DNA from: Candidatus Omnitrophota bacterium
Lineage (GTDB): Bacteria; Omnitrophota; Omnitrophia; Omnitrophales; JACQLI01
Assembly: GCA_016179745.1 (NCBI GenBank)
Contig: JACPCP010000010.1
Span: 3,832-67,831, forward strand
DNA length: 64,000 bases
Direction of reading: 5' to 3'
The notes under the pieces are model-generated. The model searched no databases and was not told the DNA's origin. It saw nothing but the letters and a program-made list of their open reading frames with translations. Positions 1,879 to 64,000 of this stretch are shown here, piece by piece (the first letter of the stretch is position 1; every line of letters starts with the position of its first letter). The position numbers were made by a program, and so were the translations under genes.

Positions 1879-2145
1879 TTCTTAACGTCTCAAAGCTGGG
1901 AAGCCCCTCGCCACGGGCCGAATCGGATTCCCGGGTCTAGAAAATCTTGCGAGACGGCATGGGAAAGCCGGCGGCCCCCGTCCGGGGGAACGACGGAAGG
2001 GTTTTCCCGTGCCGGATCGCTTAGATTTTCTCCCGAGGAATCCGACTGAGGCCCGGGTGAGGGGCCTTCCCGGCTTAGGAACCGAGGCGAGAGGAGATTC
2101 TGCGGTGGGTGGGCATTTTGAGGAAAGGGGTCGATAAAGGAGTTT

Positions 2146-3330: not shown

Positions 3331-3345
3331 CGCCCACAGTCCTCT

Positions 3346-3838: not shown

Positions 3839-4077
3839 GGCCTGCCGGCCTTGCGAAGGTTAGCACAGAACCTTACATTAGTAAATACTATTTTATGTAT
3901 CGTTTTATTGCCTGTGGGCATCAAAATACCCTCCCGACGTTTTTTGTCGCATTTGGTTTGGAGGGTGAGGCGGGGTGGCCGACTTTTACGGGGGACGTTT
4001 TACGCCCATAACCCTGTTGGTTTACGGCAGATTATAACGCACGAGGTGACTCAAGAAAAGGGCTTCGCGGTTTGGAA

Positions 4078-7359: not shown

Positions 7360-7381
7360 GGAAAGAGTCCGGCCTCAGACC

Positions 7382-45661: not shown

Positions 45662-45671
45662 TGATTTCCCC

Positions 45672-48720: not shown

Positions 48721-49361
48721 TGTTGGGTCTCCTCCCTTTGGATAAATCGTTCTAGACTGAGAGCCACCTTTTGGTAAAAGTTTGAAACGGTTTGTTTCGT
48801 AAGATGATTCAGAAAAACAAAAATCCATCGCCCGAGGTGTTCCTTAAAAAAAGCCTCGGCGGCGTCCTCTTTCCCGGCTTGAAGCATTCGCCCCATAAAC
48901 TCGAGTTCGCAGGCCGCATGGTCCGGAAGTTCATGGAAGGCCGTCACCTTCCGAAATCCCTCGGCCTCATAAATCGTCTGCACCTGGACGGCTGATTCTC
49001 CGCCCAAGAAACCCTTCATTCCTTCGGGCAGGGATTCCGACCTGAAATAGCAGGAGTTTGCCGTCGACGTGTCAATGGTCAACCGATCGCAATAGTAAGA
49101 CTCATAAGGGGAGACCGCTTTCTCCCCGGGCGCCACAAAAAGTGAAGTATATTCCACAGCAATGTCGTCGACCCTCGCCGGCCAATCCGGATCTTCCAAG
49201 ATCGTAGTGTTGCCCGGAACCGCATCCCCGCTGAAACAGAAGGCAAGTGTCAGGAGTTTTTGCTCGGTAACCGATCGGAGGAGAGCGCCATCAGGCGCTT
49301 CCCGGAAAAGTCGGGAAAACAAAAAATAAACTGCGGTCTTTTCCTCAAGCTCGGCTGACAC
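48717..49361 (-). CDS. TorD/DmsD-family redox-enzyme maturation chaperone
   Basis: 214 aa helical. AVYFLFSRLFREAP...YTSLFV... matches the Nitrate_red_del/TorD family. Overlaps the Mo-subunit stop. Confidence 0.65.
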   Translation of the reverse strand: MSAELEEKTAVYFLFSRLFREAPDGALLRSVTEQKLLTLAFCFSGDAVPGNTTILEDPDWPARVDDIAVEYTSLFVAPGEKAVSPYESYYCDRLTIDTSTANSCYFRSESLPEGMKGFLGGESAVQVQTIYEAEGFRKVTAFHELPDHAACELEFMGRMLQAGKEDAAEAFFKEHLGRWIFVFLNHLTKQTVSNFYQKVALSLERFIQREETQQ

Positions 49362-51786
49362 GCACGCAGATTTCCTTATTCAGGGACTGGCCGGAGAGCG
49401 GACAGGCGATCGTCTTTGCAAGAAAGCCTGTGTGAGCGCCCCGGCCCTTGGCGATCTTTCCCATGGCCCAGTGTCCCCATCCGTGCTGTGTGCCGACAAC
49501 TTCTGGGTGGATCCCTTCAGTGAGTTCCGCCCGCATCTTGATTTTGCCATAAGGAGACTCGACCCAAACCCAATCCTTATCCTGAATTCCAAACTTTACC
49601 GCTGTCTTGGCGTTGATCCTGAGTCCGTCCGTTGCTTTGAGTTCCGCAAGAAAGGCGTTGTTCTGAGTGCGGGAATGCGTCTGCGATGCCTCTTTCCAGT
49701 TGATCAGGAAAAGGGGATATTCTTGACTTGGCTGCCACTCCCGTGGCTCGTAAACGGGAAGAGGGGCGAGATCATGTCCGGCTGCGTCTTTTTTCCCGAC
49801 ATGCTTCGCTGCGTAAAGTTCAAGCTTGCCAGAAGGCGTAAAAAAGCCATGGATTGCCGTCCCATCGGCTTTTAACATTCCCATCGGCTTGTCCTTGGTG
49901 CCATCCTTCTTCTTTGAAAAGGCAAGGTTTCCTTCGATCAAAGCATCCTTCAGCTTATCTCCCGGGACGGGATCAAGATGTTTGTGATACTTCGTCCCGT
50001 TCGGGCTAACCCACGTAGCGCCGGGGAGCGCCTTGAGCTCTTCCAGGGTGATCTTGGGTTCGCCTTCCTTAAGCTCTCGGCTCAGCCACTCCTCATACCA
50101 CCTCTTTTTGTCCTCAATCCGCTCGCCCGACGTCCGTCCGACCCAGAAAACGTCGTTGCCGTTCGCTTCCTTCAAGCCAAGCCGGCGACCGAGTTCTGAG
50201 ACAAACTCGTATTCCGCCGGCTGACCAAAAAGCGGTTTCACCACCGGTTGGCGAAGTCCCACCGCCGGCCATGTCACCCAGTGGGTATTTAAGTCGTAGC
50301 GTTCTAAATAGGTCGTCCCCGGGACCACGATATCGGCGAACTCAGCAGTTTCGCTTAACATGGTGTCCACGACGACAACGAATTCAAGATTCTTCAGGGC
50401 CTTCTCGGCATTCTTCGTGCCCGCCACCGACATCAAGAGGTTTTGGAAAACGATCATCGCCATCTTCGGCTGGTAGGGGCCCTTGCCGTCAACGAGTCGA
50501 TTGATGATCTCCATGTAAACACCCGATTTGTGGAAGTAGGGCCATTTGTCCTTGCCGCCGTCCAGGCGGGGTTCCTTCAAGGTTTTTGCCGCCACGGCGT
50601 CTGGCTCTACTTCAATGTGCTTACCGCCCTTCGCATTGGGGAGCACGAGGGTTCCCGGCTTCTCGATATTCCCCGTAATCGCAGCAAGCGCCCCAATCGC
50701 CCAACCGGCATACACTCCATTCGTATGATGGGTGCCTGACCAGACGTCGACTAAGGCGGGCTTCGTCGTGGCAAATTCTTTTGCCAGTCGTTCAATTCGC
50801 TCGGCGGGGACGGTGGTAATTACTTCAGCCCATTGAGGCGTTTTATCCTTGACGTATTCCTTAAATTGATCAAACCCCACAGTCCACTCATCAATAAAGG
50901 GTTGGTCCTGAAGATTATCACGAAGAATCACGTGCGCCAGGGCCAGCGCCAGCGCTCCATCCGTGGCCGGCCGAATCGGAACCCACTCATCGGCCCTGGA
51001 GGCCGTGTAAGAAAAGTGAGGATCTACAATCACAAGCTTGGCGCCCCGTTCCCTGCCCCGTGTGATGATCCGTGGCAAATGGGAAAATTTTGTTGCCGAC
51101 AGGGGATTCCAGCCGAAGATCAGCATGTATTTGGAGTTGAGGGCGTCGATCAGGGGGCGCTCATCTCCCATCAGGATCTTGAAGGAGGCCTTCCGCCCCG
51201 TATCACAAAGGTTGGAGTGCATGCTGTAGTTCGGCGTGCCGAAAAGTTTGCAGAAGTCGCCCTGAGGGTGGGTAAACGAGTGGTCCTCAGAGAACCAGAG
51301 AAGTTTGTGCGCCTCGCCGCCGTCCCGCAGTTTCTTGAGACGGTCGACAATTTCCGTGTAAGCCTCTTCCCAAGAGATCGCCTTCCACCGGGGATCCACA
51401 CCAATGCCTTTCTTGGAATTGGTCCGCCGCAAAGGCTGCTTCAGGCGATCAGCATCATAGAGCGCCATGATCCCGGCGTTTCCCTTCGGGCACATGACGG
51501 CCCCCTCTTTCGCTGCATTGGCAAAGAAGTCGTCCGAGATGTTGGAAAATCCAATGGGGTTGTGGGGATTGGGCTTGATCCGAAAGAGGCGCCCGCCCAC
51601 CACCTGGCACAGAATCCCCGTCTGCCCCCCGCACATGTTGCAGCAGGAAGGAATCCATTCGTCCTTATCATAAGGGCCCTTGAGCATCTCCTCTTGGGCC
51701 AAGGCCTGTGCGGTCTTGGTCAGCGTCCCGACACCCAAGAGACCCGCTCCGCTGAGTTTCAAGAATTTACGTCGATTAAGTTTCAT
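49345..51786 (-). CDS. Molybdopterin oxidoreductase catalytic subunit, DMSO-reductase family, Cys-ligand Psr/Phs/Ttr/Arr-like clade
   Basis: Tat signal MKLNRRKFLKLSGAGLLGVGTL. N-terminal FeS-cluster Cys cluster (SCCNMCGG...C). Likely Mo-ligand Cys in HSNLCDTGR. 813 aa with MGD-binding domains. Confidence 0.8.
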   Translation of the reverse strand: MKLNRRKFLKLSGAGLLGVGTLTKTAQALAQEEMLKGPYDKDEWIPSCCNMCGGQTGILCQVVGGRLFRIKPNPHNPIGFSNISDDFFANAAKEGAVMCPKGNAGIMALYDADRLKQPLRRTNSKKGIGVDPRWKAISWEEAYTEIVDRLKKLRDGGEAHKLLWFSEDHSFTHPQGDFCKLFGTPNYSMHSNLCDTGRKASFKILMGDERPLIDALNSKYMLIFGWNPLSATKFSHLPRIITRGRERGAKLVIVDPHFSYTASRADEWVPIRPATDGALALALAHVILRDNLQDQPFIDEWTVGFDQFKEYVKDKTPQWAEVITTVPAERIERLAKEFATTKPALVDVWSGTHHTNGVYAGWAIGALAAITGNIEKPGTLVLPNAKGGKHIEVEPDAVAAKTLKEPRLDGGKDKWPYFHKSGVYMEIINRLVDGKGPYQPKMAMIVFQNLLMSVAGTKNAEKALKNLEFVVVVDTMLSETAEFADIVVPGTTYLERYDLNTHWVTWPAVGLRQPVVKPLFGQPAEYEFVSELGRRLGLKEANGNDVFWVGRTSGERIEDKKRWYEEWLSRELKEGEPKITLEELKALPGATWVSPNGTKYHKHLDPVPGDKLKDALIEGNLAFSKKKDGTKDKPMGMLKADGTAIHGFFTPSGKLELYAAKHVGKKDAAGHDLAPLPVYEPREWQPSQEYPLFLINWKEASQTHSRTQNNAFLAELKATDGLRINAKTAVKFGIQDKDWVWVESPYGKIKMRAELTEGIHPEVVGTQHGWGHWAMGKIAKGRGAHTGFLAKTIACPLSGQSLNKEICVRVSRA

Positions 51787-51795
51787 GATTCGCTC

Positions 51796-52635
51796 TTACA
51801 ACAAGTAGTAGACATTCGGCTCGGTTCCAAGTTCCTCTTTCAAACGAGTCCACTTCCGATGGGTGATCAATTCGTTCAAATTGCATCCATGCCCGATACA
51901 CCGCCCTGTGAGAAAATCGCCGAAGTGAATGGCTTTTCCCATGCAGGTTTCAGCGCATGCTGTCGGACGGGTGTATTGCCCGCTGGCATCCTGGAGATGA
52001 AGGCAAAAGGTGCATTTGCGGGCATTTCCGATCGGGGCTTTCGCCTTTTCACGCAATCCATACTTGCTGTGAAATTCCGGCGAAGGAATATTCCCATATT
52101 CTGTTTCCTGGGCAGGGTAATTTTTCCCCTCATCGAAAATACGAGCTCCATAGGGACAGGCGGGGATACAGTCGCCGGCACCAATACACTTGTCATGATC
52201 GACGAGAACAATTCCGTCTTCCTCCCGTTTGTAGGTTGCACCGACCGGGCAGACATCAATACAGGGCGGTTTCTCACAATGAAAACAAGGCCGGGGGAAC
52301 CAGCGGCGTTGGACATCGGGAAATTCGCCAACCTCTTCTTCAATCACAGGATTGTAAGTAACGCCCGGGGGGGTTTTATTCTCAAGTTTACAGGCGGCGG
52401 TGCAGGCCTCGCAGTTCACACAACGTTTGAGATCAATCGTCATCCCGTAACGAAACTTCTTCTTGGTGGTGAAGTTCTCAGCGGCCTCGACGATCTCGGC
52501 TGGGAGGGCAGCGATCGCTGAGGCGACGACTCCGATACCGGCCAGCTTTAAAAAGGACCGTCGCCCCAACTCCTGGTCCACTGTCTCTTGGAGGGTTAAT
52601 CGTTTCTGGGCCATTTGCGGTTCATCTTCGGTCAC
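51796..52635 (-). CDS. 4Fe-4S ferredoxin-type electron-transfer subunit of the molybdoenzyme (DmsB/PsrB/TtrB-like)
   Basis: Own Tat signal GRRSFLKLAGIGVVASAIAA. Four ferredoxin-like CxxCxxCxxxC(P) motifs. No TM helix. Confidence 0.8.
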   Translation of the reverse strand: MTEDEPQMAQKRLTLQETVDQELGRRSFLKLAGIGVVASAIAALPAEIVEAAENFTTKKKFRYGMTIDLKRCVNCEACTAACKLENKTPPGVTYNPVIEEEVGEFPDVQRRWFPRPCFHCEKPPCIDVCPVGATYKREEDGIVLVDHDKCIGAGDCIPACPYGARIFDEGKNYPAQETEYGNIPSPEFHSKYGLREKAKAPIGNARKCTFCLHLQDASGQYTRPTACAETCMGKAIHFGDFLTGRCIGHGCNLNELITHRKWTRLKEELGTEPNVYYLL

Positions 52636-52694: not shown

Positions 52695-53585
52695 ATGGAA
52701 ATCCGGGAACTCAAGATCTTTAGAGACATCGCCCAGGAAAAAAACTTTGTCAAGGCAGCCAAGCTGAACTTCCTCACCCAGCCCTCCATCAGCTCTCACC
52801 TAAAACACCTCGAAGAAGAGCTTGGGGTGCGCCTTTTTGAGCGGGTCCCTCGAAAAGTTAAGCTGACCCACGAAGGCGAGCTCCTGCTGCCCCACGTCGA
52901 GGAAGTGCTCCTGAAATGCGGGAACCTGAAAACCTTGATTTCACGATTAAGCGGCATCCCCAAGGGCGATATCCGGATTGCAACGGTTTACAGCATCGGA
53001 ATGTATGAATTGGCCCCGGCCCTCAAACAATTTATCCGCACGTATCCGGACATTCATGTCCATCTTCAATACCGCCGTTCGGATATCATCTATGATCTGC
53101 TTCTTGAGGATAAAATCGACCTCGGCATGGTGGCTTACCCGGAGGACCGGGTCAAGATCAAAGTCACGCCTTTTGGCAATGACCACCTCGTTTTAATTAC
53201 CCCTCCCCATCATCCCCTTGCCAAACAGAAAAGCATCCGCCTCAAACGGATCGAGGGAGAGAACTTCATCGCCTTCGATTCGGGTATTCCGACACGAGAG
53301 ACGGTGGATCAGACGCTCGAACAGCGGGGAATCAAAGTCCAAGTCCGGATGAGCAATGAGAACATTGATACGTTGAAACGGGCCGTCGAGGTGGGACTGG
53401 GTATCTCGATTGTCCCCAGCAAGACCATCACCGAAGAGGTTCGGAAGGGAACCCTGAAGAGTGTTCATCTCAGTGATGTCAAGCTGAACCGGCCTCTCGG
53501 TATCCTCACCTTAAAAGATCGCATCCCCAGTTATCCCCTTCAGCTTTTTATGGAAGTGCTAACGGACCACGCTTCGAGAACCTAG
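52695..53585 (+). CDS. LysR-family transcriptional regulator
   Basis: N-terminal HTH (IRELKIFRDIAQEKNFVKAAKLNFLTQPSISSHLKHLEEELGVRLFER) and a C-terminal LysR substrate-binding domain. Divergent from the molybdoenzyme operon. Confidence 0.8.
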   Translation: MEIRELKIFRDIAQEKNFVKAAKLNFLTQPSISSHLKHLEEELGVRLFERVPRKVKLTHEGELLLPHVEEVLLKCGNLKTLISRLSGIPKGDIRIATVYSIGMYELAPALKQFIRTYPDIHVHLQYRRSDIIYDLLLEDKIDLGMVAYPEDRVKIKVTPFGNDHLVLITPPHHPLAKQKSIRLKRIEGENFIAFDSGIPTRETVDQTLEQRGIKVQVRMSNENIDTLKRAVEVGLGISIVPSKTITEEVRKGTLKSVHLSDVKLNRPLGILTLKDRIPSYPLQLFMEVLTDHASRT

Positions 53586-54692
53586 GACCGGCTGATAGGC
53601 ACAGCAAGGATCTTCCTCCAGATAATCCCCGGTCAGGGCATAAGCCCGGGAGCGGGAGCCCCCGCAGATTTCACGATAGGGACAAATCCCGCAGCGGCCT
53701 TTTAGGAGTGAGGCGTCTCTCAATTCCTTCAAGAGCGGGGAATTTCGATAAATTTCCTTCAGGGAATTTTCCCGAACATTTCCGGCCGCAAGCGGAAGAA
53801 AGCCGCTCGGCATCACCTCGCCCCGGTAGGAAATAAAAATAAATCCCTTGCCGGCATTGACGCCCTGCGGGGCGTGGCCAATGCTCCCCCGGGGTCCGGC
53901 ATCCCGCTTGAGAGAAGCCGGCAACGACACCTTGTCCCACTCGACCCGGTCCGAACGAATCCCCTGGCGGGCCAATTCCTTCTCAAAACAAAAACGGCGA
54001 TAGTGCGGGGCCTCGGTGATTTTAATGACCGTCTGGACCCGCTGGCTTAGGGCGTAAATTTTTTCAAAGGCCGCTTCGAATCTCTCGGCGCTCATCAGGG
54101 GCAATTCTTTCCCCCGCCCCACCGGCACTAGAAAGAAGACTTCCCAGAAGACGATGTCGAGTTTTTCAATCAAATGAATGAGTTCATCCAGCTGGGCCGT
54201 ATTGTGGACATTGACGAGGGAATTGATCTGGACGGCGAGGCCGCATTCTTTCGCCTGACGGACACACTCCAGGGTGTGATCAAAGACCCCGCTCGTTCTC
54301 CGGAAGGCGTCGTGGTCCTCCGCCTTTGCGGCGTCCAGACTGAAGGCGATTTGATCAAGGCCCGACGCTTTGAGCGCTGAAATCTTTTCGTAGGTCACCG
54401 CCGGTGTCACGGCCGGAATGGCCCCGGTCCGAAGCCCCAGTGATTTTGCCTCACGAATCAAATCGGGAAGGTCTGTGCGCTTCAGGCAGTCACCGCCGCT
54501 GAAAACGATGATCGGCGTCCCCATCTCCCGAACTTCCCTCACCAGACGAAGCGCCTCCTCAGAAGTCAGTTCGTCAGGGGCGGGGTTCGGATCCGCCGAG
54601 GCCCGGCAGTGAACACAGGCCAGGTCACACGCCCGGGTCGTCTCCCAAATGACGAGAAAGGGTCTTTCGGAAAAGTCGAAACCGTGAGTCAT
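53559..54692 (-). CDS. Radical SAM protein with C-terminal SPASM domain (AhbD/NirJ/PqqE-like)
   Basis: WETTRACDLACVHCRA is a CX3CX2C motif. C-terminus GRCGICPYREICGG...CC (SPASM). Downstream of feoA. Confidence 0.6.
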   Translation of the reverse strand: MTHGFDFSERPFLVIWETTRACDLACVHCRASADPNPAPDELTSEEALRLVREVREMGTPIIVFSGGDCLKRTDLPDLIREAKSLGLRTGAIPAVTPAVTYEKISALKASGLDQIAFSLDAAKAEDHDAFRRTSGVFDHTLECVRQAKECGLAVQINSLVNVHNTAQLDELIHLIEKLDIVFWEVFFLVPVGRGKELPLMSAERFEAAFEKIYALSQRVQTVIKITEAPHYRRFCFEKELARQGIRSDRVEWDKVSLPASLKRDAGPRGSIGHAPQGVNAGKGFIFISYRGEVMPSGFLPLAAGNVRENSLKEIYRNSPLLKELRDASLLKGRCGICPYREICGGSRSRAYALTGDYLEEDPCCAYQPVLGSRSVVR

Positions 54693-54736
54693 GCCCGGAA
54701 TGTATCACTTCTCTGAATAGCAATCAGTGATCAAGA

Positions 54737-55189
54737 TCACAACTTCACGTAAATAGCAGAGGCGAGCCCCCGATCGACGGAGAACTGGCTCCAGCCGATC
54801 TGGAAAACATAGGAAGGAAACCGCTGAAGCAGGGTGATCGGAGATCCCGGCAGAACTCCGATCGCAATCAGCTTTTTGAGCCGTTGGGGATCCTGCATTT
54901 CCAGATGGGTGACTTCGGCCTTCTGATTCACCGGGAGGGATGAAAGCGGAAGGCAGGTCACTTCTCCCGAAAAGGGGACAGGCCCCTGGGCCATTGGCGA
55001 TCCTGGACCTGTCCCCTTTTCTGTGCGAAAAAGGCCGAACAGTTTTTTCATCCATTCCGGCTGGGGCACTATTTCGTAATAACAGTAAGGGCAGCGCACC
55101 CCCTGACAGCCCTTGACGAATCCGCAGGCCGAACAGGTCTGACGCCCCTGGCTTTCCTCAAACTCCCGTTTACAAAGATCGCAAATCAT
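54737..55189 (-). CDS. feoA: FeoA-domain protein with N-terminal zinc ribbon
   Basis: Internal Met start. MICDLCKREF...CSACGF...CPYC is a 4-Cys ribbon. C-terminal SH3-like FeoA domain (AEVTHLEMQDPQRLKKLIAIGVLPGSPITLL). ATGA start/stop overlap with the feoB stop. Confidence 0.65.
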   Translation of the reverse strand: MICDLCKREFEESQGRQTCSACGFVKGCQGVRCPYCYYEIVPQPEWMKKLFGLFRTEKGTGPGSPMAQGPVPFSGEVTCLPLSSLPVNQKAEVTHLEMQDPQRLKKLIAIGVLPGSPITLLQRFPSYVFQIGWSQFSVDRGLASAIYVKL

Positions 55190-57216
55190 AACACCGCCCC
55201 CAACCGCACCAGGATTTGATTCAGCACAAAGGCAAACCCGAAAGAAAAAAAGAGGATGAAAATGGAAATCCCGACCCCGGTCTTCCATCCCCGCTCCTTG
55301 ACATTCATTAGGAATTGCGCAATGCAGGGCAGGAAAAGGGTCAGAGCCACACAGGCCACCAGCATTTGGACGCCGTCCAACCGGCCCTTCGACACGAGGT
55401 CATAGAGGCCGGCGGCCCCGTAATCCCGCCTGAAAAAGCCCATCAAAAAGATCGAGGCCGCCTCCGCCGGAAGACCGATCGCCCGGACCGGGACCGCCAG
55501 GCCTCGAATCAAAAAACCGAAAAGGCCCGTCAACTGCCCGAGCCAGATCAAGGCGCTCGCCACAATGAACAAGGGGAGAACTTCCGTGAAATACCATTTG
55601 ACCCGGACATAGGTTTTTGTAAGCACATGAGAAATTTTGGGCCAGCGGAGCGGGGGCAATTCCATGTAAAACGAGGGCCGTTCGCCCGGCAGGATCTGCG
55701 CCGTGAGAAATCCGATGAAAAGAAAGACAAGGCCCACGACGAACGCCCAAAGAAGAAGCGCCCGGTCGTGACCCGCCAAAACGGCAAAGATCACCCCGAG
55801 CTGCGCCGAACAGGGGATGGCCAGAGAAAGAAGCAGGGTCGAGATGATCCGCTCTCTCACCGTCGGCAGGGTGCGGGTCACCATCGTGGCCATCGTGTCA
55901 CAGCCGAATCCCAGAACCATCGGTATCACGGCCCGGCCGCTCAGCCCGATTTTCTTAAAGGTCCGGTCGAGGAGCATGGCGAGTCTCGGGAGGTAGCCCG
56001 TATCCTCAATGACGGCGAAGACGGCAAAGTAGAAGGTGACGATGGGGAGAATAAGGGCCACCGCATACCTCACTCCGAGTGTCAGCATTCCATACTCGCC
56101 GACAAAGAGATCCTGAAGGAGCGGCCAGGGAAGGATCCTTGAGAAGACCTTGACGAAGAAAGGGTTCAGGAACCCTTCAAAGACCGTGCCTTCGAGGAAA
56201 TCGACGACGGTCCCCGCCCCGAACACACCCACGAATTGGTAAAGTCCCCCATACAGCACAAAGAAAAGGATCGGAAATCCCGTCAGGGGATTCATTGTAA
56301 GGCGGCTTAAGAATTCCCCCCACCTCCCGGAACGGACATCGGACCTCCAGGACCGTTTTTTGGTTCGGCATACATTTTCCGAAATCCGGGCCGCCCGGCG
56401 TTTGAGGCTTGATGCGATTTCAAATTCAAGCGGGGCCTGAAGATGGTTTTTTAATTCGCTGGCAAGCGCCTCCGCAATCTCCAAAACCAGAGGTTCCTGT
56501 TTCTTAACCAGCGACCGCACCTCCTCGTCCCCTTTGAGGAGAAGCAGTGAGAGAGACCGCTTTGAAATCGGATACTCGCCCGCCAGGGACTCGCCGATCC
56601 TTGCCAGAGCGCCCTCCAGCGAGACCGGCGCCCGGCCGTCATAATTCACCGTCGTTCCACGGAGGGAGGGTGATTCCGCTTCCAATCCGGTTAAGTGACG
56701 GACAGCTGTCTTGAGCTCTTTGAGGCCCTCGCCCGTCGTCAGCACGGTCTCGAGAACTGGGATGCCCAAGTCCTGAGTCAGGGCCTTTTGATGGATTCCG
56801 ATCCTCAGGCGCCGGGCCTCATCCATCATGTTGAGGACCAGGATCGTCGGGAAGGCGGCCTCGATCAATTGAAGCGTCAAGGGAAGCAGCCGTTCCAGAT
56901 TCTTTGCATCCACCAGGTGGATCACCAGAGAGGGCTTTTCCTTAAAAAGGATTCTTCGTGCTACGCCCTCCTCCTCCGTCAGGGGCGAAAAGGAATAAAT
57001 GCCGGGCGTGTCGATCACCTCGAAAGAGACGCCGTCGATTTTCGCCTTTCCCCGGGAAACTTCCACGGTCGTGCCCGGGTAATTGGCCACGGTGACATAA
57101 CGGCCTGTAAAGTGGTTAAAGAGCAGGCTTTTCCCGACATTGGGGCTGCCGACAATCACCACCTTCTTCAATCCCGAGCTGGTTTTATCCTGTTTGTGAT
57201 CGCAGCAAGCTTCCAT
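55186..57216 (-). CDS. feoB: Ferrous iron transporter B
   Basis: N-terminal G-domain (GSPNVGKS, DTPG) plus a polytopic membrane domain with gate motifs. 676 aa. Confidence 0.9.
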   Translation of the reverse strand: MEACCDHKQDKTSSGLKKVVIVGSPNVGKSLLFNHFTGRYVTVANYPGTTVEVSRGKAKIDGVSFEVIDTPGIYSFSPLTEEEGVARRILFKEKPSLVIHLVDAKNLERLLPLTLQLIEAAFPTILVLNMMDEARRLRIGIHQKALTQDLGIPVLETVLTTGEGLKELKTAVRHLTGLEAESPSLRGTTVNYDGRAPVSLEGALARIGESLAGEYPISKRSLSLLLLKGDEEVRSLVKKQEPLVLEIAEALASELKNHLQAPLEFEIASSLKRRAARISENVCRTKKRSWRSDVRSGRWGEFLSRLTMNPLTGFPILFFVLYGGLYQFVGVFGAGTVVDFLEGTVFEGFLNPFFVKVFSRILPWPLLQDLFVGEYGMLTLGVRYAVALILPIVTFYFAVFAVIEDTGYLPRLAMLLDRTFKKIGLSGRAVIPMVLGFGCDTMATMVTRTLPTVRERIISTLLLSLAIPCSAQLGVIFAVLAGHDRALLLWAFVVGLVFLFIGFLTAQILPGERPSFYMELPPLRWPKISHVLTKTYVRVKWYFTEVLPLFIVASALIWLGQLTGLFGFLIRGLAVPVRAIGLPAEAASIFLMGFFRRDYGAAGLYDLVSKGRLDGVQMLVACVALTLFLPCIAQFLMNVKERGWKTGVGISIFILFFSFGFAFVLNQILVRLGAVL

Positions 57217-57221
57217 TGAGT

Positions 57222-58073
57222 TTATCTTTTAGCTTTCTTTTTCCAAAAGTGATCGAAACTGATCGAAAGGCCGGCAATAACGGCCTGTTCGGGCTTCTCA
57301 TTATTCGTAAGGCCGGCCCTCCAAGCCAGATCCAATAAGACGTTCGGGCTCACCTGAAAGGTCAAACCCACGAGCGGATTCAAACGGTGGTGGTTTGAGG
57401 CGTCCGCATCAAAATGCCCTCCCTTTTCTCCGTAGAGTTCTCCCGCAACCTTCCACCGGTCCGAGAGTTTGTATTCAGAGGCAACTCCATAGATCAAGTA
57501 GTCCCTTAAGGCCTCGTCTTTGTCATCTCCTACAAAGGCATACCCGGCATTACCGTGCACGGTGAGGTTTTTAATCATCTTCGATACGACCCCCACAAGT
57601 TGGACGTCTTCATCGCCGCTTCCGAGGCCCTTGGCTTCGTTCCCGTTTGCAAATTTTACCACGATCTTCAGAAGCGCAGCCGGTATAAACTCCTTCTCCG
57701 GAAAAATCTGGGTCTTTGTAATTAAACTGATATCCGACCAGCCTTCCACATTCTTCCCCTCTTCAGGCCGGAGGAAGCTTGCGGGAAAATCGGCCGAAAC
57801 CTCGAGCCGATCCGTAAGGCCCAGGATGGGGGTCGTCGTTAACGAGAATTCCTCATCTTGATTCTTGTCCGCATACTGGATTCCTTCTTCCAGCTGGAAT
57901 ACCCAGCGGCCGGCGACTCCGGCATCCTCGGTTGCGAAAGGCCGGCCGGCATACCCCGAAGGCATCTCAAGGCCTCCTTCCCCGAAAAGGAGAAAGAGCC
58001 CGGCCGCCCCCCAGCCCAGCCACCCGAGGGACCTCACCCCGCTCCAAGGCCTCAGTTTGATATTGAGAATCAT
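57222..58073 (-). CDS. Putative outer-membrane beta-barrel protein (transporter/MetA-pathway-like family)
   Basis: N-terminal signal-like hydrophobic segment. Alternating amphipathic strands rich in G/Y/D. Lies between the large barrel gene and feoB in the same strand string. Confidence 0.4.
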   Translation of the reverse strand: MILNIKLRPWSGVRSLGWLGWGAAGLFLLFGEGGLEMPSGYAGRPFATEDAGVAGRWVFQLEEGIQYADKNQDEEFSLTTTPILGLTDRLEVSADFPASFLRPEEGKNVEGWSDISLITKTQIFPEKEFIPAALLKIVVKFANGNEAKGLGSGDEDVQLVGVVSKMIKNLTVHGNAGYAFVGDDKDEALRDYLIYGVASEYKLSDRWKVAGELYGEKGGHFDADASNHHRLNPLVGLTFQVSPNVLLDLAWRAGLTNNEKPEQAVIAGLSISFDHFWKKKAKR

Positions 58074-58158
58074 TCTCAGAATGATGACTCAAGAGAGTCC
58101 CCTTGTCTAGTCGTTTCTTCGAATCAATCGAATCGGGAGAGGTGATTGATCTTCCGGC

Positions 58159-60249
58159 TTACCAGCCGAGGGTAAATTCTAACGAGAACAGGTGGGCGAG
58201 GTAATCCCCTACTTCCGCATCGGCATTCGCCTTGTAAAGGGAGTATCCATACTCGGGCGAGAGGGTCAGGCGCTCATTCACCGCCCATTGGAGGCCCAAG
58301 GTCAAGTCGACCCGGTCAAAGTCGGCCCCCATCGGGATTCCCCGATCCGAAAAATCGTCGAAGTTCCGGGCGTGGGTGAGAAGAAAGGAAGTGGTCGTCG
58401 TCAGGTTGGGCCGGGGAAAATAATTGACCGAAAAAAGCCAGGTGTTGGAGTCCGCCGTAAAACGAGGAATGGCAGTCGTGGCGTTGGAAGCGGCGGCCGG
58501 GGAAACAACCGAGAGGAGCTGCCGGGAGAAAGCGGTCGTCAAAAGAAAATCAGCAGAGGGCTGGTAGGAGAGATCCAGGGTCACTGTTTGTGAATTGGCA
58601 TCCGAATCGACAGCAACCTCATTCTCTGCCCGGGATCGGTCGTCCTCAAGGCGAAGCTGGTAGCGAAAAGAGGGGCGAACCCGGATCCAGGACGTGAGGG
58701 TGGTCCGGAAGGCATATTCCGTAATGTCGACATCCAGCTCATCGTAGAAAGCAGACCGGGCCGTGCTCCCTGTGGGATCGGTTTCACGGGTATCGTCATA
58801 ATCATTGTTACTCCAACGCTGCCTCACGTGGGTCGTCAAATCCAAGTGATCCGTGGGAAGGATCCGGGCGCCCAGGGTCCAGACTCCCCGGCCGATATGA
58901 GTGATGGTTTCACGGCTGAAAGTGTCATTGGCGCTCGCAGCGGATTGGCCCGCAAGGCTTAGCCGGTCCTCACTCAGCCAGTTTCTGGCCTGCTCAAATT
59001 CGAGCTCTCCATAAAGGGCGGTGCGGGAGATTGAGGTATTTCGGAAGGAAATACTTTCTCCGAAGCGGTAGATATTGCTGTCAGTAACGCTTCGTGCGGT
59101 GGTATTGATGATGCCGTCCGGGGCGCCCGCCGTGGTGTCATCGGGGTAAAGGGAGTTTCCGTGGCCGATGATCCTTTCGGTCTTCAGTCTCCCCACCAGA
59201 TTGGTGGATGGCCAAAGATTCCAGAGGTAACTGGCCACCCAGGTGTGGGAGTCGTAGTCATTGTCCGCACGAGCATTCCGGATCTGCTTCGGATTAGCGA
59301 AATTGGTCACCACCCGGTTCTCATTCATCTCAAAGATATTTTCCATTTCTTGATTGTTGAGATGGACATAGCGGTAGGCGACGCCGCCGAATTTCTTTTC
59401 ATCCTTGGACCAGCGTTCCGCCTCAAGCGTGGTGGACATAAACCGGGCCTGAGGTTCCTGGATCTGGTTTCGGATCTTCCGGTCAGCGGCGGCGGCCGTC
59501 GTGGAACGCCACCTTTCCTCCCGCATCAGTTCTGATTTCGAAATTTCCCACTTTTGTTCTCCCTTGACATCGAAACCCTGAATCTTTTGTTCCATGCGGA
59601 GGCCAAAAATATCCACCACCTCCTCAATCTCCTGAAAGGCCGGGGCAATGTAACGGATAATGCTGCCTTCGGTGACCCCGGCCCAGGTGAGACGGGACTT
59701 GATACCGTCCTTAAACTCTCTTTCATAAAAGAAAACCGTGTCCGGGAGCTTTCCCAGATCGAGCCCCACCTCCAGGGCCAAATGCCCGATCTCAAGCTCA
59801 AGCTCCCGGTCCACATTGGCCGATTTGAAGGTGGTGAATCGCCGGTAAGCGCCCCCCGTGTTGTCATAAAAACGGCTAAATTCCTTGTAGTCGAGATGGA
59901 GAAAGCCAAAATCTTCCTTTTCGATCTCCAGCTCCCCCTTGAGATCGTTCTCGTCAATGAAGGCGTGGCCTTCGGAAACCATGGAAATTTTCTCTTCGGG
60001 ATTGGCGGAGTAAAGTGAGAACTCTTTGATGCCCCCTACATAGTTGTCCTTGATCCAATGGTGGGCTTCGAATTTTCTCTCGTCTCCGCTCACGGAAGTG
60101 AATCGAAGAGGCGCGGGGGTGATCGAGACTTCACTTTCGGCCGCCAGGGCCTGAGAAGCCATAAGCAATGCGAGAAAGGAGGAAAATATAAAGAAAATCA
60201 CGGTGCTTCCTGCGGGCCGTATCGTGTTTTTCTTCCCGGAATTAATCAT
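58159..60249 (-). CDS. Large outer-membrane beta-barrel protein (MtrB/PioB-like by size and context)
   Basis: Signal peptide (internal Met MINSGKK...ALLMASQALA). About 697 aa, rich in alternating aromatic/polar strands. C-terminal ...FSLEFTLGW ends in an aromatic residue. No TonB plug motifs. Start overlaps the octaheme cytochrome stop. Confidence 0.45.
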   Translation of the reverse strand: MINSGKKNTIRPAGSTVIFFIFSSFLALLMASQALAAESEVSITPAPLRFTSVSGDERKFEAHHWIKDNYVGGIKEFSLYSANPEEKISMVSEGHAFIDENDLKGELEIEKEDFGFLHLDYKEFSRFYDNTGGAYRRFTTFKSANVDRELELEIGHLALEVGLDLGKLPDTVFFYEREFKDGIKSRLTWAGVTEGSIIRYIAPAFQEIEEVVDIFGLRMEQKIQGFDVKGEQKWEISKSELMREERWRSTTAAAADRKIRNQIQEPQARFMSTTLEAERWSKDEKKFGGVAYRYVHLNNQEMENIFEMNENRVVTNFANPKQIRNARADNDYDSHTWVASYLWNLWPSTNLVGRLKTERIIGHGNSLYPDDTTAGAPDGIINTTARSVTDSNIYRFGESISFRNTSISRTALYGELEFEQARNWLSEDRLSLAGQSAASANDTFSRETITHIGRGVWTLGARILPTDHLDLTTHVRQRWSNNDYDDTRETDPTGSTARSAFYDELDVDITEYAFRTTLTSWIRVRPSFRYQLRLEDDRSRAENEVAVDSDANSQTVTLDLSYQPSADFLLTTAFSRQLLSVVSPAAASNATTAIPRFTADSNTWLFSVNYFPRPNLTTTTSFLLTHARNFDDFSDRGIPMGADFDRVDLTLGLQWAVNERLTLSPEYGYSLYKANADAEVGDYLAHLFSLEFTLGW

Positions 60250-60251
60250 TT

Positions 60252-61091
60252 TTAATAGCGCAGATGTTCGTCGAAATTGGAACCGTGCATCCCCGTGTGG
60301 CACCCGGCGCTAAAGCAAGTTCCCTGCGGCAGTCGGGCGGCGTGGCTTGATTTTCCGATCGTCGGAAAATTCACTTGGGTATGGCAGCGAAGGCAGAGCG
60401 TGCTGTCCCGGGCCATCAGGAGGCTCGGATGGATGGAGCCATGGACCTTGTGGCAGGTCGTGCATCCTTCCCGGACCGCCTCATGTTCAAAGACAAAAGG
60501 GCCCCGCTGTTCTTTGTGGCACTTGAAGCAAGCTTCATTCATATCGTTCAGGGTGGTTGCCGACCAGGGACGGACCTCGGCACCGTGAGCGCTGTGACAA
60601 TCCGTGCAACTGACCTTCCCCTCCAGAACAGGATGGTGGTAAGGGAGACGAAACTCGATTTTCTTATCCAAGTGGCAGTTAAAGCAGGCGCTGGGATCCC
60701 GTTTCGGATTGATAATCGTCTGGCGTTTCCCTTTTTTGTCTGTGTCGCTCGCCTCGACGTGCAGGCTGCCCGGCCCGTGACACATTTCGCAGCCTTGGGC
60801 CTTAACTTTTTCACCCGGGACGGAAATCCGGGAATGGGTGGAGAGACGGAATTCCTTCGCCTCTTTCTCGTGGCAGAGGACACAAGTGTCCGTCCCGACA
60901 TATTCAGCGGTAACAGATTCCTTTGCCTTGATCGCCTTCGGCGCTTCGGAAGGAGGACCTCTTTCACCTTCGGATTCCGGCCAAACGGGGCTTGGGAATA
61001 GGGCCAGGAAAAGCGTCAATGAAAGAATTGAGCAAAACGGCAAGATCCAACGGCGGGACGGGAGCAGCGGAAAAGACTTTTTGGGGATCAT
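60252..61091 (-). CDS. Periplasmic multihaem (octahaem) cytochrome c
   Basis: Signal peptide after internal Met MIPKKSF. Seven CxxCH motifs (CVLCH, CEMCH, CFNCH, CTDCH, CFKCH, CTTCH, CLRCH) plus one CX4CH (CFSAGCH), in about 280 aa. Confidence 0.75.
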   Translation of the reverse strand: MIPKKSFPLLPSRRWILPFCSILSLTLFLALFPSPVWPESEGERGPPSEAPKAIKAKESVTAEYVGTDTCVLCHEKEAKEFRLSTHSRISVPGEKVKAQGCEMCHGPGSLHVEASDTDKKGKRQTIINPKRDPSACFNCHLDKKIEFRLPYHHPVLEGKVSCTDCHSAHGAEVRPWSATTLNDMNEACFKCHKEQRGPFVFEHEAVREGCTTCHKVHGSIHPSLLMARDSTLCLRCHTQVNFPTIGKSSHAARLPQGTCFSAGCHTGMHGSNFDEHLRY

Positions 61092-61258
61092 CTCGGCTAT
61101 TTTTGTTTGCTTAATATTACGGCCGGTTGCCGTTTTGCCTCTAGTGACCCGTGTCACAGATCTGACGGCCTGGTGCATTATGCCATTGGGCTAAATGCTT
61201 CGGATGAGATTATCGCAAAGGATAGTAGATTTAATAAATTGATTTTTCTTCTCTAACC

Positions 61259-61275
61259 AATCAGTTTGACTGATT
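61259..61275. promoter_or_regulatory. Palindromic candidate operator in AT-rich intergenic region upstream of the octahaem cytochrome gene
   Basis: AATCAGT-ttg-ACTGATT, a perfect 7-bp inverted repeat. It lies inside an unusually AT-rich 225-bp spacer (61092-61315) that also contains a GATAAT hexamer. Confidence 0.3.
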
Positions 61276-61315
61276 TATCTCGGGTATGAAGAACGTCTTT
61301 CAATCTCGCCACGGC

Positions 61316-62780
61316 CTAATCCGACCCGCCGGTGTGGCAATCGGTGCAGGCCATTTCCTTCCAGGTCTCGCCGATGTCTTCCGGATGTTTAAATTCAAGC
61401 CCCTCCGAAGCCCGCTCCGGCTGGGCGGCCGGCCCCTGTTCAATGATGCTGTGGCAGACGGCGCACTCGTTCCGGATCACCTTCCCCTCCTCTGTCTGAT
61501 GTAACCCATCGTGGCAGCGGAAGCAGCCCGGAAAGATAAAGTGGCCGATGTTGTTCGGGTATTCCTTCCACGAGACTTTCATATTGGGAAAAAAGTTGGT
61601 CCGGTAAATTTCCTGGACCGCCTTGACGGTCCGTTCGATCCTTTTTTCCTTCTGGGCCCAGATTTCGGGATACTTCGTTTGGTAAAAATTTTCCAGGTGA
61701 CTCCGGACCCCGGCCAGGGCCGCCTCCGGGGACGGGTAATCGCCCAAAAGCGCCTTCACCGCCTCCCGTTTGACGTAGGGAAGCGAACGGTCGATGACGC
61801 CGTAACTCATCGCTTCATTGACCGCCTTGGAAGGAGACTTGAAGATATGGCTCGGGCGGTTGTGGCAGTCCATGCAATCCATCCGGCGCAATTCGCCCTT
61901 CGGCAGATTCGTGGCTGAAAGACCCGATCCTTTCTCGACAAAAACCTCCTCTCGGCCATCCGGTCCGATCTTCTTGACCCAGGGGATGACCTGCCGCTTT
62001 TCGTCGGTGGCCACGTAATAAACCTGGTTATTGATGTTCATGTGCCAATGGATCCCCTCTTTCCTGCCGTAAGGAGGGATGCCGCCCCCGACAAACATCA
62101 GCATCCGGGTTTTCCATTCCGTATTGGTCTCGTCGGGTAAAAAGTATTCCCGGTCCTGCTCCACAGCGCCGAAAAATTGACGGGGCCAGTGACACTTCTC
62201 GCAGGTCTCCTGCGCCGGGCGAAGGTTTTTAATGGGGGTCTTGATCGGCTTCGAATATTTTTTTGTCAAGACAGAATAAATTTGATAGGACGGGTCCGAT
62301 GTGACATTCGGCGCAGGCCACCCGGGCATGGGGAGAATTGTGATACGCCACATATTCCGGCTGCATGACTTGATGGCAAAGACGGCCGCAAAAGGCCGTC
62401 GATTCCGTAAACTCGTAGGCCCGGTAGGTCCCAACCATCGTAAAGAGCAAAAAGAGGGTGCAAACCCCAATGGTGGTGAAAGCCCACTTTTGATGGATGG
62501 GATTGTTGAAATCGATTTGCGGAAACCGCCGGACGTAACCCCGCTTAAAGCGCCTCTTCCTCTCCCTCCAGGCACCGAGAGGAATGATGATGAGGCTCGT
62601 GACCAGAAACCCCGGCAAAATGAGGTAGGTGATGGCCCCCAAATAGGGGTTGGTCTCTTTGGCCCAGAAATCCAGGACAAAGAGGAAGAGGAGGACGGCA
62701 AACAGGAAAACCGAAAGAATGCCGCCGATGACACTGATCCAGTTTTGGAAATAGTTTTCCTGCTTCGGGAAAGAGTCCAT
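61316..62780 (-). CDS. Inner-membrane heptahaem cytochrome c with NapC/NirT-like N-terminus (ImcH-like), interrupted by an apparent frameshift at an A7 run
   Basis: Frame A (62229-62780) encodes 3 TM helices plus CGRLCH and CAECH, then stops 10 codons after an A7 run (62258-62264). Frame B continues from the same run with KKYSKPIK...CEKCH, CMDCH, CFRCH, CAVCH, CTDCH down to 61316. The joined product is about 487 aa with 7 haems. Confidence 0.5.
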
Positions 62781-62810
62781 CCGTCACCTTTTCTATAAAC
62801 TATCGGCATC

Positions 62811-62890
62811 CCCTAAAGAAAAGGGGACAGGCACCTTTAAGGGGACACCCATTTTTGCCTGTCCCCCTAAAGGTGCCTGTCCCCTGAACT
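62811..62890 (-). terminator. Compound palindromic terminator downstream of the tetrahaem cytochrome gene
   Basis: Minus strand: GGGGACAGGCACCTTTAGGGGGACAGGCAAAAATGGGTGTCCCCTTAAAGGTGCCTGTCCCC followed by TTTTCTTT. Preceded by three CTGAACT direct repeats at 62883-62910. Confidence 0.5.
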
Positions 62891-62909
62891 GACTGAACTG
62901 GCCTGAACT

Positions 62910-63359
62910 TTATCCCTGCGGAACCGGGTGTTTGATCTTTTCCCAGTATTCTGCGTAATTAAAACTTTTGAAGGTCGGCGCTTCCGGATTGTGACACTTC
63001 TGGCAGGTCTTTTCATCCGGCACAACCAGCCCCGCCTCAACGGCGGCCGCCTCATCTTCCATCACGCTTTTCTTCATATAATCCTTCCCCGGGCCGTGGC
63101 AGGATTCGCAGGAAACGCCTTCTTCAACAGGAATCGCTGCCGTGACGACCGCCTCGGTAAACCCATAAGCGGTGGAATGACACTTCAGGCACTTCCCGTC
63201 CGTCTGGGGATTCTCAACGCCCTTTTGAGCACCCTGCGCTTTCGCCTCCGGGGTTCCCAGGGTTTCAAAGGCCTTGGCGTGCCCGGATTCCTGCCAGATA
63301 CGGACCTGTTCCCCCTGTTCCGGTTTTTTATGGCAGATGGCGCACTTGGTGGAGCCCAC
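62910..63359 (-). CDS. Tetrahaem cytochrome c domain protein (no signal peptide of its own)
   Basis: Four CxxCH motifs (CAICH, CLKCH, CESCH, CQKCH) in 149 aa. GTG start. Begins 10 nt after the cyt b stop in a different frame. No hydrophobic N-terminus. Confidence 0.65.
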   Translation of the reverse strand: MGSTKCAICHKKPEQGEQVRIWQESGHAKAFETLGTPEAKAQGAQKGVENPQTDGKCLKCHSTAYGFTEAVVTAAIPVEEGVSCESCHGPGKDYMKKSVMEDEAAAVEAGLVVPDEKTCQKCHNPEAPTFKSFNYAEYWEKIKHPVPQG

Positions 63360-63369
63360 AAACTCATGT

Positions 63370-64000
63370 TCAAACTGGGCACGTTTTCTTTGATTCCGAC
63401 AAATAACCCATCATCCCAAGCACCAGGAGTGAAAGCACCACAAGAATCCCGATCGTCATCGCTACCGGCCGCTTGAGCGGATGACGCTCCTTGGAACGGT
63501 CGATAAAAGGCCAGATAAATAGAAAAAGGGGCGCCAGCGAGACAATAAAAATGCCCACGAGCTTCGGGAAATATTTGATCACCTGATACATGGGCAGAAA
63601 ATACCACTCGGGCTTGATGGCAAAGGGGGTCTGGAGCGGGTCGGCCTTTTCGCCCAACTCAAAAGGGGCCAGAATGGCCAGGGTGACCAGAAGACCCAGC
63701 AGGAGATAAAATACCATCCCTTCCTTCGTGACATGATGGGGAAAAAAGGGGATGCCTTCTCCGGGCTTGGGCTTTTTCTCCTGGCCGACCGGCTCCAGGG
63801 TGGCAATCCCCTGAAACCGGACAAGGACCAGATGAAACAGGACAATAAAGAAAACAGCCCACGGAAGGACGATGACGTGCACCACAAAAAACCGGGAGAG
63901 CGTCTCTCCGCTCACACTCTCTCCTCCCCTCAAAAGGGTCTTGATCCACTCACCGGCCCCGGGAATGGCGCCGGCCACCTCGGTCCCCACGGTCGTGGCC
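63370..64000 (-). CDS. Cytochrome b of a bc-type complex (C-terminal part incl. PEWY loop, b6/subunit-IV-like 7-helix type), N-terminus outside window
   Basis: IKPEWYFLPMYQ is the PEWY motif, followed by two more TM helices. The upstream part matches helix D/E of cyt b. The open frame continues past the window end. Confidence 0.7.
   Translation of the reverse strand, partial: ATTVGTEVAGAIPGAGEWIKTLLRGGESVSGETLSRFFVVHVIVLPWAVFFIVLFHLVLVRFQGIATLEPVGQEKKPKPGEGIPFFPHHVTKEGMVFYLLLGLLVTLAILAPFELGEKADPLQTPFAIKPEWYFLPMYQVIKYFPKLVGIFIVSLAPLFLFIWPFIDRSKERHPLKRPVAMTIGILVVLSLLVLGMMGYLSESKKTCPV

Follow-up and report, generated by a model that had tools for sequence, protein, structure and literature searches.

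Omnitrophota are widespread, uncultured and often ultra-small bacteria of groundwater and sediment, and their energy metabolism is poorly known. The described systems closest to the locus analysed here are the porin-cytochrome conduits, represented by MtrAB of Shewanella, MtoAB of Sideroxydans, PioAB of Rhodopseudomonas and the Geobacter Pcc complex. In Shewanella, mtrCAB occupies a 'conserved location upstream of feoAB' (Baker et al. 2022, PMC8805035). The inner-membrane cytochrome ImcH has a signature of three transmembrane helices, one CX3CH and six CX2CH motifs, and the study that reports it found no mtrAB or mtoAB genes adjacent to imcH and lists, as a table entry, three ImcH and three CbcL homologues in Ca. 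Omnitrophica (PMC6295460). Literature searches on Omnitrophota with Mtr or Mto returned only that study and a FeGenie-level mention of genes for iron cycling in DeMMO metagenome-assembled genomes (MAGs), Omnitrophota included (PMC8478452); for Omnitrophota with porin-cytochrome, nothing was found. Here we analysed a 64,000-nucleotide (nt) stretch of an Omnitrophota chromosome (the window), in which a minus-strand cluster at 53559-64000 encodes multihaem cytochromes, a large outer-membrane β-barrel, the ferrous-iron transporter FeoB-FeoA and a radical S-adenosylmethionine (SAM)/SPASM protein.

We read this region as a mosaic of separate modules rather than one dedicated system, with a probability of roughly 70%. 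Its conserved core would be a two-gene electron conduit across the outer membrane. A second module would form the inner-membrane link to the quinone pool, comprising cytochrome b with a tetrahaem cytochrome, a strong terminator and an ImcH-type heptahaem cytochrome; both cytochrome c genes of this module carry disabling lesions in the present assembly. The third would be a self-contained ferrous-iron import cassette of a COG4313-type channel, FeoB and FeoA, with a putative Fur-type operator on its first start codon. This cassette, which was probably inserted, separates the conduit from the radical SAM gene; in relatives the two adjoin directly.

The octahaem cytochrome and its paired β-barrel

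The earlier note on this DNA proposed that an octahaem periplasmic cytochrome and a large barrel form a porin-cytochrome conduit. The elements concerned are as follows.

61179..61315, minus strand: AT-rich spacer 5' of the octahaem gene, with a palindrome (sequence)
60252..61178, minus strand: MtrA-like periplasmic octahaem cytochrome (phmmer against 6r2q_A; motif conservation)
58159..60252, minus strand: MtrB-like outer-membrane β-barrel, 697 amino acids (predicted model, Foldseek)

Sequence comparison clearly showed the octahaem cytochrome to be homologous to MtrA. In phmmer, it aligned to the MtrA chain of the Mtr structure (6r2q_A) with an E value of 2.4e-32, in two overlapping stretches spanning residues 76-302. 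The N-terminal half matched MtrA haems 1-5 and the C-terminal half haems 5-10, indicating that two internal sites are missing relative to MtrA. The eight haems counted previously were recovered as seven CX2CH motifs and one CX4CH motif; the spacing of this eighth site was CX4CH in 44 of 46 homologues and CX2CH in the remaining two, and it is thus a genuine haem site. The protein has fewer than the ten CXXCH sites of the decahaem MtrA/DmsE family (TIGR03508) and scored below the cut-off of that family (166.1 bits vs 192.2), although this was still its best NCBIfam match; the cut-off of the GSU2203 decahaem family was also missed (165.4 bits vs 325). Translation likely starts at M30 (61091), yielding a signal peptide. 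The AT-rich spacer and palindrome reported ahead of the gene were found, the palindrome being a 7-3-7 repeat, AATCAGTcaaACTGATT, at 61259-61275, and the spacer is a candidate promoter or operator.

The ATG of the barrel gene, at 60252, shares one base with the stop codon of the cytochrome gene, as had been noted. The barrel was modelled with a predicted local distance difference test (pLDDT) score of 89.8 and a predicted template-modelling (TM) score (pTM) of 0.81. The protein has a signal peptide and its C-terminal residue is aromatic; the model displayed about 26 strands and lacked a plug, as in the large, 26-strand, plug-less fold of MtrB/PioB. In a Foldseek comparison with the PDB, MtrB (6r2q_B) ranked first (E value 4.5e-12, TM scores 0.63/0.68), TonB-dependent receptors came next at about 0.4, and the structural alignment with MtrB held 13% identity. 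Of the two checks that had been suggested for the barrel, structure prediction, here of the barrel by itself, agreed with the proposal, and the profile search did not: no match to PF11854 (MtrB/PioB) was obtained at E ≤ 0.01, nor to any other Pfam or NCBIfam family, and a profile of 60 barrel homologues found no match among all PDB sequences even at E ≤ 10. Membership of MtrB/PioB at the sequence level was rejected on these grounds, and only likeness at the level of the fold stands.

The missing PF11854 match would also suit an ordinary transporter or exporter, of TonB-dependent-like or polysaccharide/lipopolysaccharide type, to which the cytochrome is only incidentally adjacent. We regard this as very improbable. 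The β-strands start directly after the signal peptide, leaving neither a plug domain nor a TonB box, and the model has about 26 strands, compared with 22 in TonB-dependent receptors. The global TM scores to MtrB (0.63-0.68) exceed those to the receptors (~0.4), an MtrA homologue is paired with the barrel in 45 of 45 loci, and cytochrome c domains are fused to its distant homologues.

These fusions came to light when a profile was run against 1.8 billion cluster representatives and returned 902 barrel relatives (50%-identity clusters) at E ≤ 0.001. Among ten distant relatives that were scanned (~680-915 amino acids), eight carry one or two N-terminal monohaem PSCyt1 domains, a tie between the barrel family and redox chemistry that does not depend on the window. 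Sub-threshold, co-linear PF11854 matches were present in two of the ten (E values of 0.007 and 0.02). The fusions of PSCyt1 ('Planctomycete cytochrome C') with a barrel (~770-915 amino acids; P0188, P0195, P0199, P0204, P0212, P0241, P0244 and P0247) look like large fused cytochrome-porins, Cyc2-like in concept but with an MtrB-sized barrel. At the single fusion locus inspected (L063:1869-4613), no MtrA-like neighbour was present. One possibility is that the barrel is part of a large, unannotated MtrB-like superfamily that includes cytochrome-fused forms.

Gene order was compared by tblastn across 45 species-level genome loci and four metagenomic contigs (loci and contigs are given as L numbers). 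The octahaem gene lay 5' of the barrel gene in all 45 loci with upstream sequence, directly so in 44 and with a gap of ~600 nt in one. All named homologues of the barrel, and of the smaller outer-membrane protein (OMP) encoded beside it, came from Candidatus Omnitrophica/Omnitrophota MAGs. Both the haem count and the synteny comparison called for in the earlier note thus bore out the linkage of cytochrome and barrel. Collectively, homology to MtrA, a fold nearest to MtrB and pairing in every locus make it very likely that the two proteins form a porin-cytochrome conduit of the MtrAB/MtoAB/PioAB type. In such a conduit, the octahaem cytochrome would run through the lumen of the ~26-strand MtrB-like barrel and conduct electrons from one side of the outer membrane to the other. 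No further multihaem open reading frame (ORF) adjoins the barrel in the window or in most relatives, and the layout is that of MtoAB/PioAB, since an extracellular MtrC-type partner is lacking. The sequence is compatible with electron flow in either direction, for the reduction of metals or for the oxidation of Fe(II) or minerals.

The accessory genes depended on the clade. Some loci had a NapC/NrfH-like gene right after the barrel, others cytochrome b and ImcH, and others the cytochrome b-tetrahaem-ImcH trio seen in the window; of the 40 loci with 5 kb or more of flanking sequence, 24 had ImcH/NapC-like or cytochrome b genes. A constant pair with varying companions fits a portable outer-membrane conduit joined to differing quinone-pool modules.

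One clade carries a four-gene cassette that encodes a 174-amino-acid membrane protein (PF27139, Aq_1264_TM), the octahaem cytochrome, the barrel and a monohaem cytochrome c of 110-126 amino acids (L050:8686-12431, L053:8625-12494, L054:8614-12396 and ~10 GTDB loci). The monohaem protein has a signal peptide, and its gene has an MtoD-like position 3' of the barrel. Genes for Crp, hemerythrin and a P-type ATPase often precede this cassette, and L050 also has a multicopper oxidase gene. Both accessory genes of this clade are absent from the window.

Gene layout, inner-membrane genes and molybdoenzyme neighbours

All of the ORFs that the earlier note had listed between 53559 and 64000 were present in their places on the minus strand. 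Pfam and NCBIfam scans largely upheld their family labels (cytochrome b, tetrahaem and octahaem cytochromes, OMP, FeoB, FeoA and radical SAM/SPASM). The description of the junctions as tiny or overlapping was accurate for octahaem/barrel and feoB/feoA but not for several longer gaps, which measured 129 nt between the tetrahaem and ImcH-type genes, 137-224 nt between the ImcH-type and octahaem genes and 85 nt between the barrel and OMP genes. The octahaem-barrel-OMP-feoB junctions were recovered in five independent per-run assemblies (L055-L059). In total, the cluster holds 19 sites for c-type haem, to which cytochrome b adds its b haems. Consensus scanning of the window for promoters and terminators performed at chance level (5 vs 4.5 expected and 18 vs 16.3 expected), and no inverted repeats at least 12 long were found in the spacers; the short palindromes were read directly off the sequence. 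The inner-membrane genes comprise the following elements.

63370..64000, minus strand: cytochrome b gene, 3' part, of the fused b6/subunit IV type, extending past the window end (PF00032, PF13631)
62910..63359, minus strand: tetrahaem cytochrome c554-like ORF with four CXXCH (PF13435, 68 bits)
62815..62885, minus strand: intrinsic terminator, hairpin and U tract (folding)
62229..62780, minus strand: ImcH-type cytochrome, N-terminal fragment (PF03264 NapC/NirT, 27.5 bits; sequence; intact relatives)
61316..62291, minus strand: ImcH-type cytochrome, C-terminal part with five CX2CH (comparison with L015, L016, L028, L030 and L039)

The terminator predicted after the tetrahaem gene proved to be real and very strong. 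A perfect 26-bp stem (62823-62885) is followed by UUUUCUUU, the hairpin has a minimum free energy of -62.6 kcal/mol (z = -7.25), and none of 200 shuffles folded as well. This element was under-called by the consensus scan and was revealed by folding. It divides the cytochrome b-tetrahaem genes from the rest of the cluster.

The inner-membrane gene with three transmembrane helices and seven haems, likened to ImcH in the earlier note, has this architecture in intact relatives, but the window copy is split and not one ORF. Intact ImcH-type genes at six loci (L015, L016, L028, L030 and L039 among them) are single ORFs of 497-514 codons between stops that encode three transmembrane helices, one CX3CH and six CX2CH. 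Compared with these, 35 nt are absent from the window gene at ~62291, after CAECHIGP, so that translation halts at 62229 after 183 codons and the five haem motifs beyond fall into another frame. The N-terminal fragment of 183 codons keeps the three helices, CX3CH (CGRLCH) and CAECH. No single polypeptide in the window combines three helices, CX3CH and six CX2CH.

The tetrahaem cytochrome was likewise confirmed in its four CXXCH motifs and PF13435 match, but here lacks its signal peptide, since ~230-270 nt are missing. As assembled, the ORF has a GTG start directly at the first haem motif, no ATG and no signal peptide, whereas the proteins of seven relatives have an N-terminal signal or anchor of 30-60 residues. 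The cytochrome b of relatives extends ~30 residues past 'GYLSESK', where the window tail is truncated. Comparison with the DNA of L030, L033 and L045 placed the absent segment, made up of the cytochrome b tail, the spacer and the tetrahaem signal peptide, at the junction 63369-63391. Because it is a c-type cytochrome without an export signal, the tetrahaem protein as assembled is not maturable. The C-terminus of cytochrome b was predicted to be periplasmic, and similar E[YH]EF codons occur close to the deletion junction. An in-frame fusion of cytochrome b to cytochrome c through the deletion was considered and rejected, as the parts lie in different frames with a stop between them.

Genuine decay of the inner-membrane module could account for the two lesions, as could faulty assembly. 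Neither the truncated ImcH fragment nor the tetrahaem ORF had an exact match when their products were looked up, and two metagenome scans for the lesions, one by junction sequence and one by flanking sequence, were likewise empty. The independent Logan contigs L055-L062 end before both lesions. Beyond the window, an ImcH-type gene was clustered with the mtrAB-like pair in seven related loci (L015, L016, L028, L030, L033, L039 and L045). This clustering is a modest addition to the earlier survey of imcH, in which no such adjacency was reported (PMC6295460).

Next to the cluster, at 47542-52635 on the minus strand, the window encodes a PhsA/PsrA-like molybdopterin oxidoreductase, a DsrO/NrfC-like iron-sulphur (FeS) subunit, a TorD-like chaperone and a porin with a weak ExtI match; molybdenum cofactor genes follow (MoaA, 46183-47163; MoeA, 44459-45799). 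The FeS, oxidoreductase and chaperone genes span 48717-52635, the FeS subunit and the oxidoreductase have twin-arginine translocation (Tat) signals, and no NrfD/PsrC-type membrane anchor gene accompanies the oxidoreductase. Orthologues of these three genes, 78-81% identical, immediately precede the octahaem-barrel pair in L010 (4656-8455), recalling DmsEFAB. Sub-cut-off NCBIfam 'Ext' matches were also recorded for LysR_Sec_metab (193 bits vs 250; 52695-53585, plus strand), cytb_ExtP/ExtQ (63370-64000, minus strand) and porin_ExtI (47542-48828, minus strand). These matches to a Geobacter selenite/tellurite operon may point to chalcogen oxyanion reduction or to mere family breadth.

Such a neighbourhood suggests another role for the conduit, which, as in DmsEFAB, would work chiefly for a molybdoenzyme, soluble or at the surface, passing electrons through the MtrA/MtrB-like pair to the PhsA/PsrA-like enzyme 1 kb away. 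Consistent with this role are the DmsE family as the top NCBIfam match of the octahaem cytochrome, the Tat signals of an enzyme without its own membrane anchor subunit, the gene order of L010 and the presence of molybdopterin oxidoreductases near the pair in L006, L031 and L037 as well. However, no more than 4 of 40 loci had the link, in the window a LysR gene of divergent orientation stands between the molybdoenzyme genes and the cluster, and there was no sign of export of the enzyme beyond the periplasm. We give this role a slim chance.

The OMP-feoB-feoA cassette and iron supply

The remainder of the cluster consists of the following elements.

58064..58078, strand-neutral: Fur-box-like 7-1-7 palindrome (consensus scan)
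57222..58073, minus strand: COG4313/PF13557 OMP, 283 amino acids (PF13557, 40.1 bits vs cut-off 22)
55186..57216, minus strand: FeoB ferrous-iron transporter (TIGR00437, 421 bits vs cut-off 316; also PF02421, PF07670 and PF07664)
54737..55189, minus strand: FeoA, 150 amino acids (PF04023, 49 bits vs cut-off 23)
53559..54692, minus strand: radical SAM/SPASM protein (TIGR04053, 456.4 bits vs cut-off 395)

FeoB and FeoA both passed their family cut-offs, as did the OMP. The AlphaFold2 model of the OMP (pLDDT 76) displayed a barrel of 12 long strands and one short four-residue element by DSSP. Foldseek placed it near FapF and 4RL8, the COG4313 channel Pput2725, at TM scores of 0.62-0.67; comparison of its sequence with PDB sequences gave no match, and a 100% identical protein occurs in an annotated Omnitrophota MAG. 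COG4313 channels have been described for hydrophobic substrates. The clade of the window OMP recurs in gene neighbourhoods beside FeoB, with CbiM/Q/O and CbtB (L052:1092-4729) and after NikR (L047:9200-10819), which suggests that it comprises outer-membrane entry channels for divalent metals, not for hydrophobic substrates, and that the OMP of the window would admit Fe2+ or other divalent metals. The overlap of the feoB stop with the feoA start was confirmed as ATGA, with the FeoA start at 55189. Residues 1-45 of FeoA (55060-55189) form a Cys-rich extension without a Pfam match; its three CxxC motifs and extra Cys (MICDLCK...CSACG...CPYC) look like a zinc-ribbon or metal-sensing module.

A Fur-like site, TGAGAAT-N-ATTCTCA, lies on the start codon of the OMP gene (58064-58078) and agrees with 12 of 14 positions of a consensus that may not be the one used in this phylum. 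It was the sole match to TGATAATNATTATCA with at most two mismatches in 64 kb, where 0.05 was expected by chance. Its core was kept at the OMP starts of the window, L046 and L051. The palindrome is a putative Fur-binding site.

The earlier note proposed that the conduit and OMP-FeoBA form one integrated system, transcribed as a single operon and acting in reductive iron assimilation or as an Fe(II) oxidation/uptake module, and had named lack of conservation of the linkage in relatives among the outcomes that would refute it. On that count the proposal fails. None of the 32 related loci whose sequence continues for 2.5 kb or more past the barrel carries feoB or the OMP gene, and neither do the closest long contigs, L050 and L053, whose barrels are 53% and 51% identical to that of the window. 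The sole other contig with this adjacency was L046, ordered ResB-CcsA-octahaem-barrel-(Cys-rich 112 amino acids)-OMP-FeoB and identical to the window at 67% in the OMP, 72% in the FeoB N-terminus and 47% in the barrel. In L051 (148-4266), OMP-feoB occurs without the conduit and beside an IS66 transposase. The arrangement was also thought not to have been described, but the Shewanella precedent cited above shows that co-linearity of feo with a conduit is not new in kind.

Two features of L046 merit separate mention. ResB and CcsA, of system II cytochrome c maturation, are encoded directly upstream of its octahaem gene (1937-3975), and a cytoplasmic Cys-rich protein of 112 amino acids with two internal repeats is encoded between its barrel and OMP-feoB (7068-7406). 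Homologues of the latter are encoded near the conduit in L028 (12329-12652) and L010 (2645-2950).

An integrated system would agree with the shared strand, the 85-nt gap without a hairpin between the barrel and OMP genes, the recovery of the adjacency in five independent assemblies, its presence in L046 despite a barrel just 47% identical, and the neighbouring feoAB of Shewanella mtrCAB (PMC8805035). It fits poorly with the complete absence of feoB and the OMP gene from the 32 loci and from L050 and L053, with the free-standing cassette of L051, with the company of other metal importers kept by the OMP clade (L052, L047) and with the predicted Fur-like operator of the cassette itself. We therefore consider a single integrated system unlikely, and a genuine functional unit of conduit and Feo, of whatever kind, doubtful to a similar or slightly greater degree. 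A narrower version is slightly less likely still. In it, some Omnitrophota would use the conduit, the COG4313-type channel and FeoBA together as a single Fur-controlled pathway of reductive iron acquisition, with insoluble Fe(III) reduced at the cell surface by way of the conduit and Fe2+ imported through the channel and FeoB. In the mosaic that we favour, conduit and Feo would be coupled, if at all, opportunistically and in a lineage-specific manner, for example through import of Fe(II) made at the surface or supply of iron to a cluster with 19 c-type haem sites.

The radical SAM gene bears on a further explanation of the cluster. The TIGR04053 protein is a paralogue of AhbD and NirJ, and it missed the AhbD cut-off (303 bits vs 500). 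Its gene was linked to a conduit or ImcH gene in L018, L031, L033, L039 and L045; in L039 it directly follows the barrel, and the order in L045 is rSAM-octahaem-barrel. Feo, the AhbD-like radical SAM protein and the ResB/CcsA of L046 might therefore lie near multihaem genes for iron and haem supply, an association that would be logistic or regulatory, without channelling of redox products. The 19 c-type haem sites and cytochrome b haems, the closeness of TIGR04053 to the haem b synthase AhbD, its linkage to cytochromes in five loci and the ResB-CcsA genes directly upstream of octahaem in L046 are all consistent with such supply. However, AhbD membership failed at the cut-off, TIGR04053 has no assigned function, Feo linkage is rare, and a Fur-repressed importer would be off at plentiful iron, when cytochrome synthesis is likely highest. 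Supply of this kind is possible but not probable.

Several observations weigh against the mosaic of separate modules. The conduit at its core includes a barrel with the lack of Pfam, NCBIfam and PDB sequence matches described above, the nearest database relative of this barrel is only 54% identical, and the synteny comparison covers the longer range only. The absence of a terminator between the barrel and OMP genes makes co-transcription or read-through into feo possible. With a barrel 47% identical, the adjacency in L046 means that the link either persisted or arose twice, which hints at selective value. Finally, if both lesions are real, the conduit may be without local quinol partners here.

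Significance and comparison with described systems

The pair of MtrA-like octahaem cytochrome and MtrB-like barrel is phylum-wide and strictly kept, and is missed by standard hidden Markov models (PF11854, TIGR03508); annotation pipelines thus undercount such conduits. Its inner-membrane partners are interchangeable, being ImcH-type, NapC-type, cytochrome b or a monohaem cytochrome c, and the family offers a concrete handle on extracellular electron transfer in Omnitrophota. The Feo adjacency, together with the Shewanella precedent, is a lead on whether conduits also serve iron assimilation, and an integrated reductive route, if true, would put a porin-cytochrome conduit to dedicated assimilatory use. 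Because COG4313-type channels recur with FeoB, CbiMQO or NikR, divalent metals may cross the outer membrane by a route that has gone unrecognised.

Compared with FeoAB and COG4313 channels, the cassette agrees in that FeoA, FeoB and the OMP pass their cut-offs and that the OMP barrel resembles Pput2725 (4RL8) and FapF. It differs in its order, OMP-feoB-feoA, in the Cys-rich extension of FeoA and in that the proposed metal role derives from gene neighbourhoods only. The Geobacter Pcc OmaB/OmbB/OmcB similarly combines a periplasmic eight-haem cytochrome with a porin-like protein (PMC4245776), but the window has no 12-haem outer cytochrome and its octahaem protein is an MtrA/DmsE homologue. The three transmembrane helices, one CX3CH and six CX2CH of the relatives match Geobacter ImcH (PMC6295460), whereas the imcH-like gene of the window is frameshifted.

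The conduit falls outside strict MtrAB/MtoAB/PioAB membership on three counts, namely its eight haems, the DmsE cut-off and PF11854. As in Shewanella (PDB 6R2Q), an MtrA-homologous cytochrome is encoded immediately upstream of a plug-less barrel of MtrB fold, and the mtr locus there also adjoins feoAB (PMC8805035). The window differs from Shewanella in having 8 haems, not 10, with CX4CH as the last site, in lacking an MtrC/OmcA-type extracellular cytochrome, in a barrel without detectable MtrB/PioB sequence similarity and in an inner-membrane partner that is ImcH-type or cytochrome b, not CymA. From Sideroxydans MtoAB(-MtoD-CymA/ImoA) and Rhodopseudomonas PioAB, which are Fe(II)-oxidising, it differs in an octahaem rather than decahaem cytochrome, in a barrel outside PF11854 and in the absence of a monohaem or intact NapC-type partner; Fe(II) oxidation is only a candidate role for the conduit here. 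It shares with MtoAB and PioAB the plan of two components without an outer-surface cytochrome, and in related loci the barrel is followed by a monohaem (MtoD-like) or NapC/NirT-type (CymA/ImoA-like) gene.

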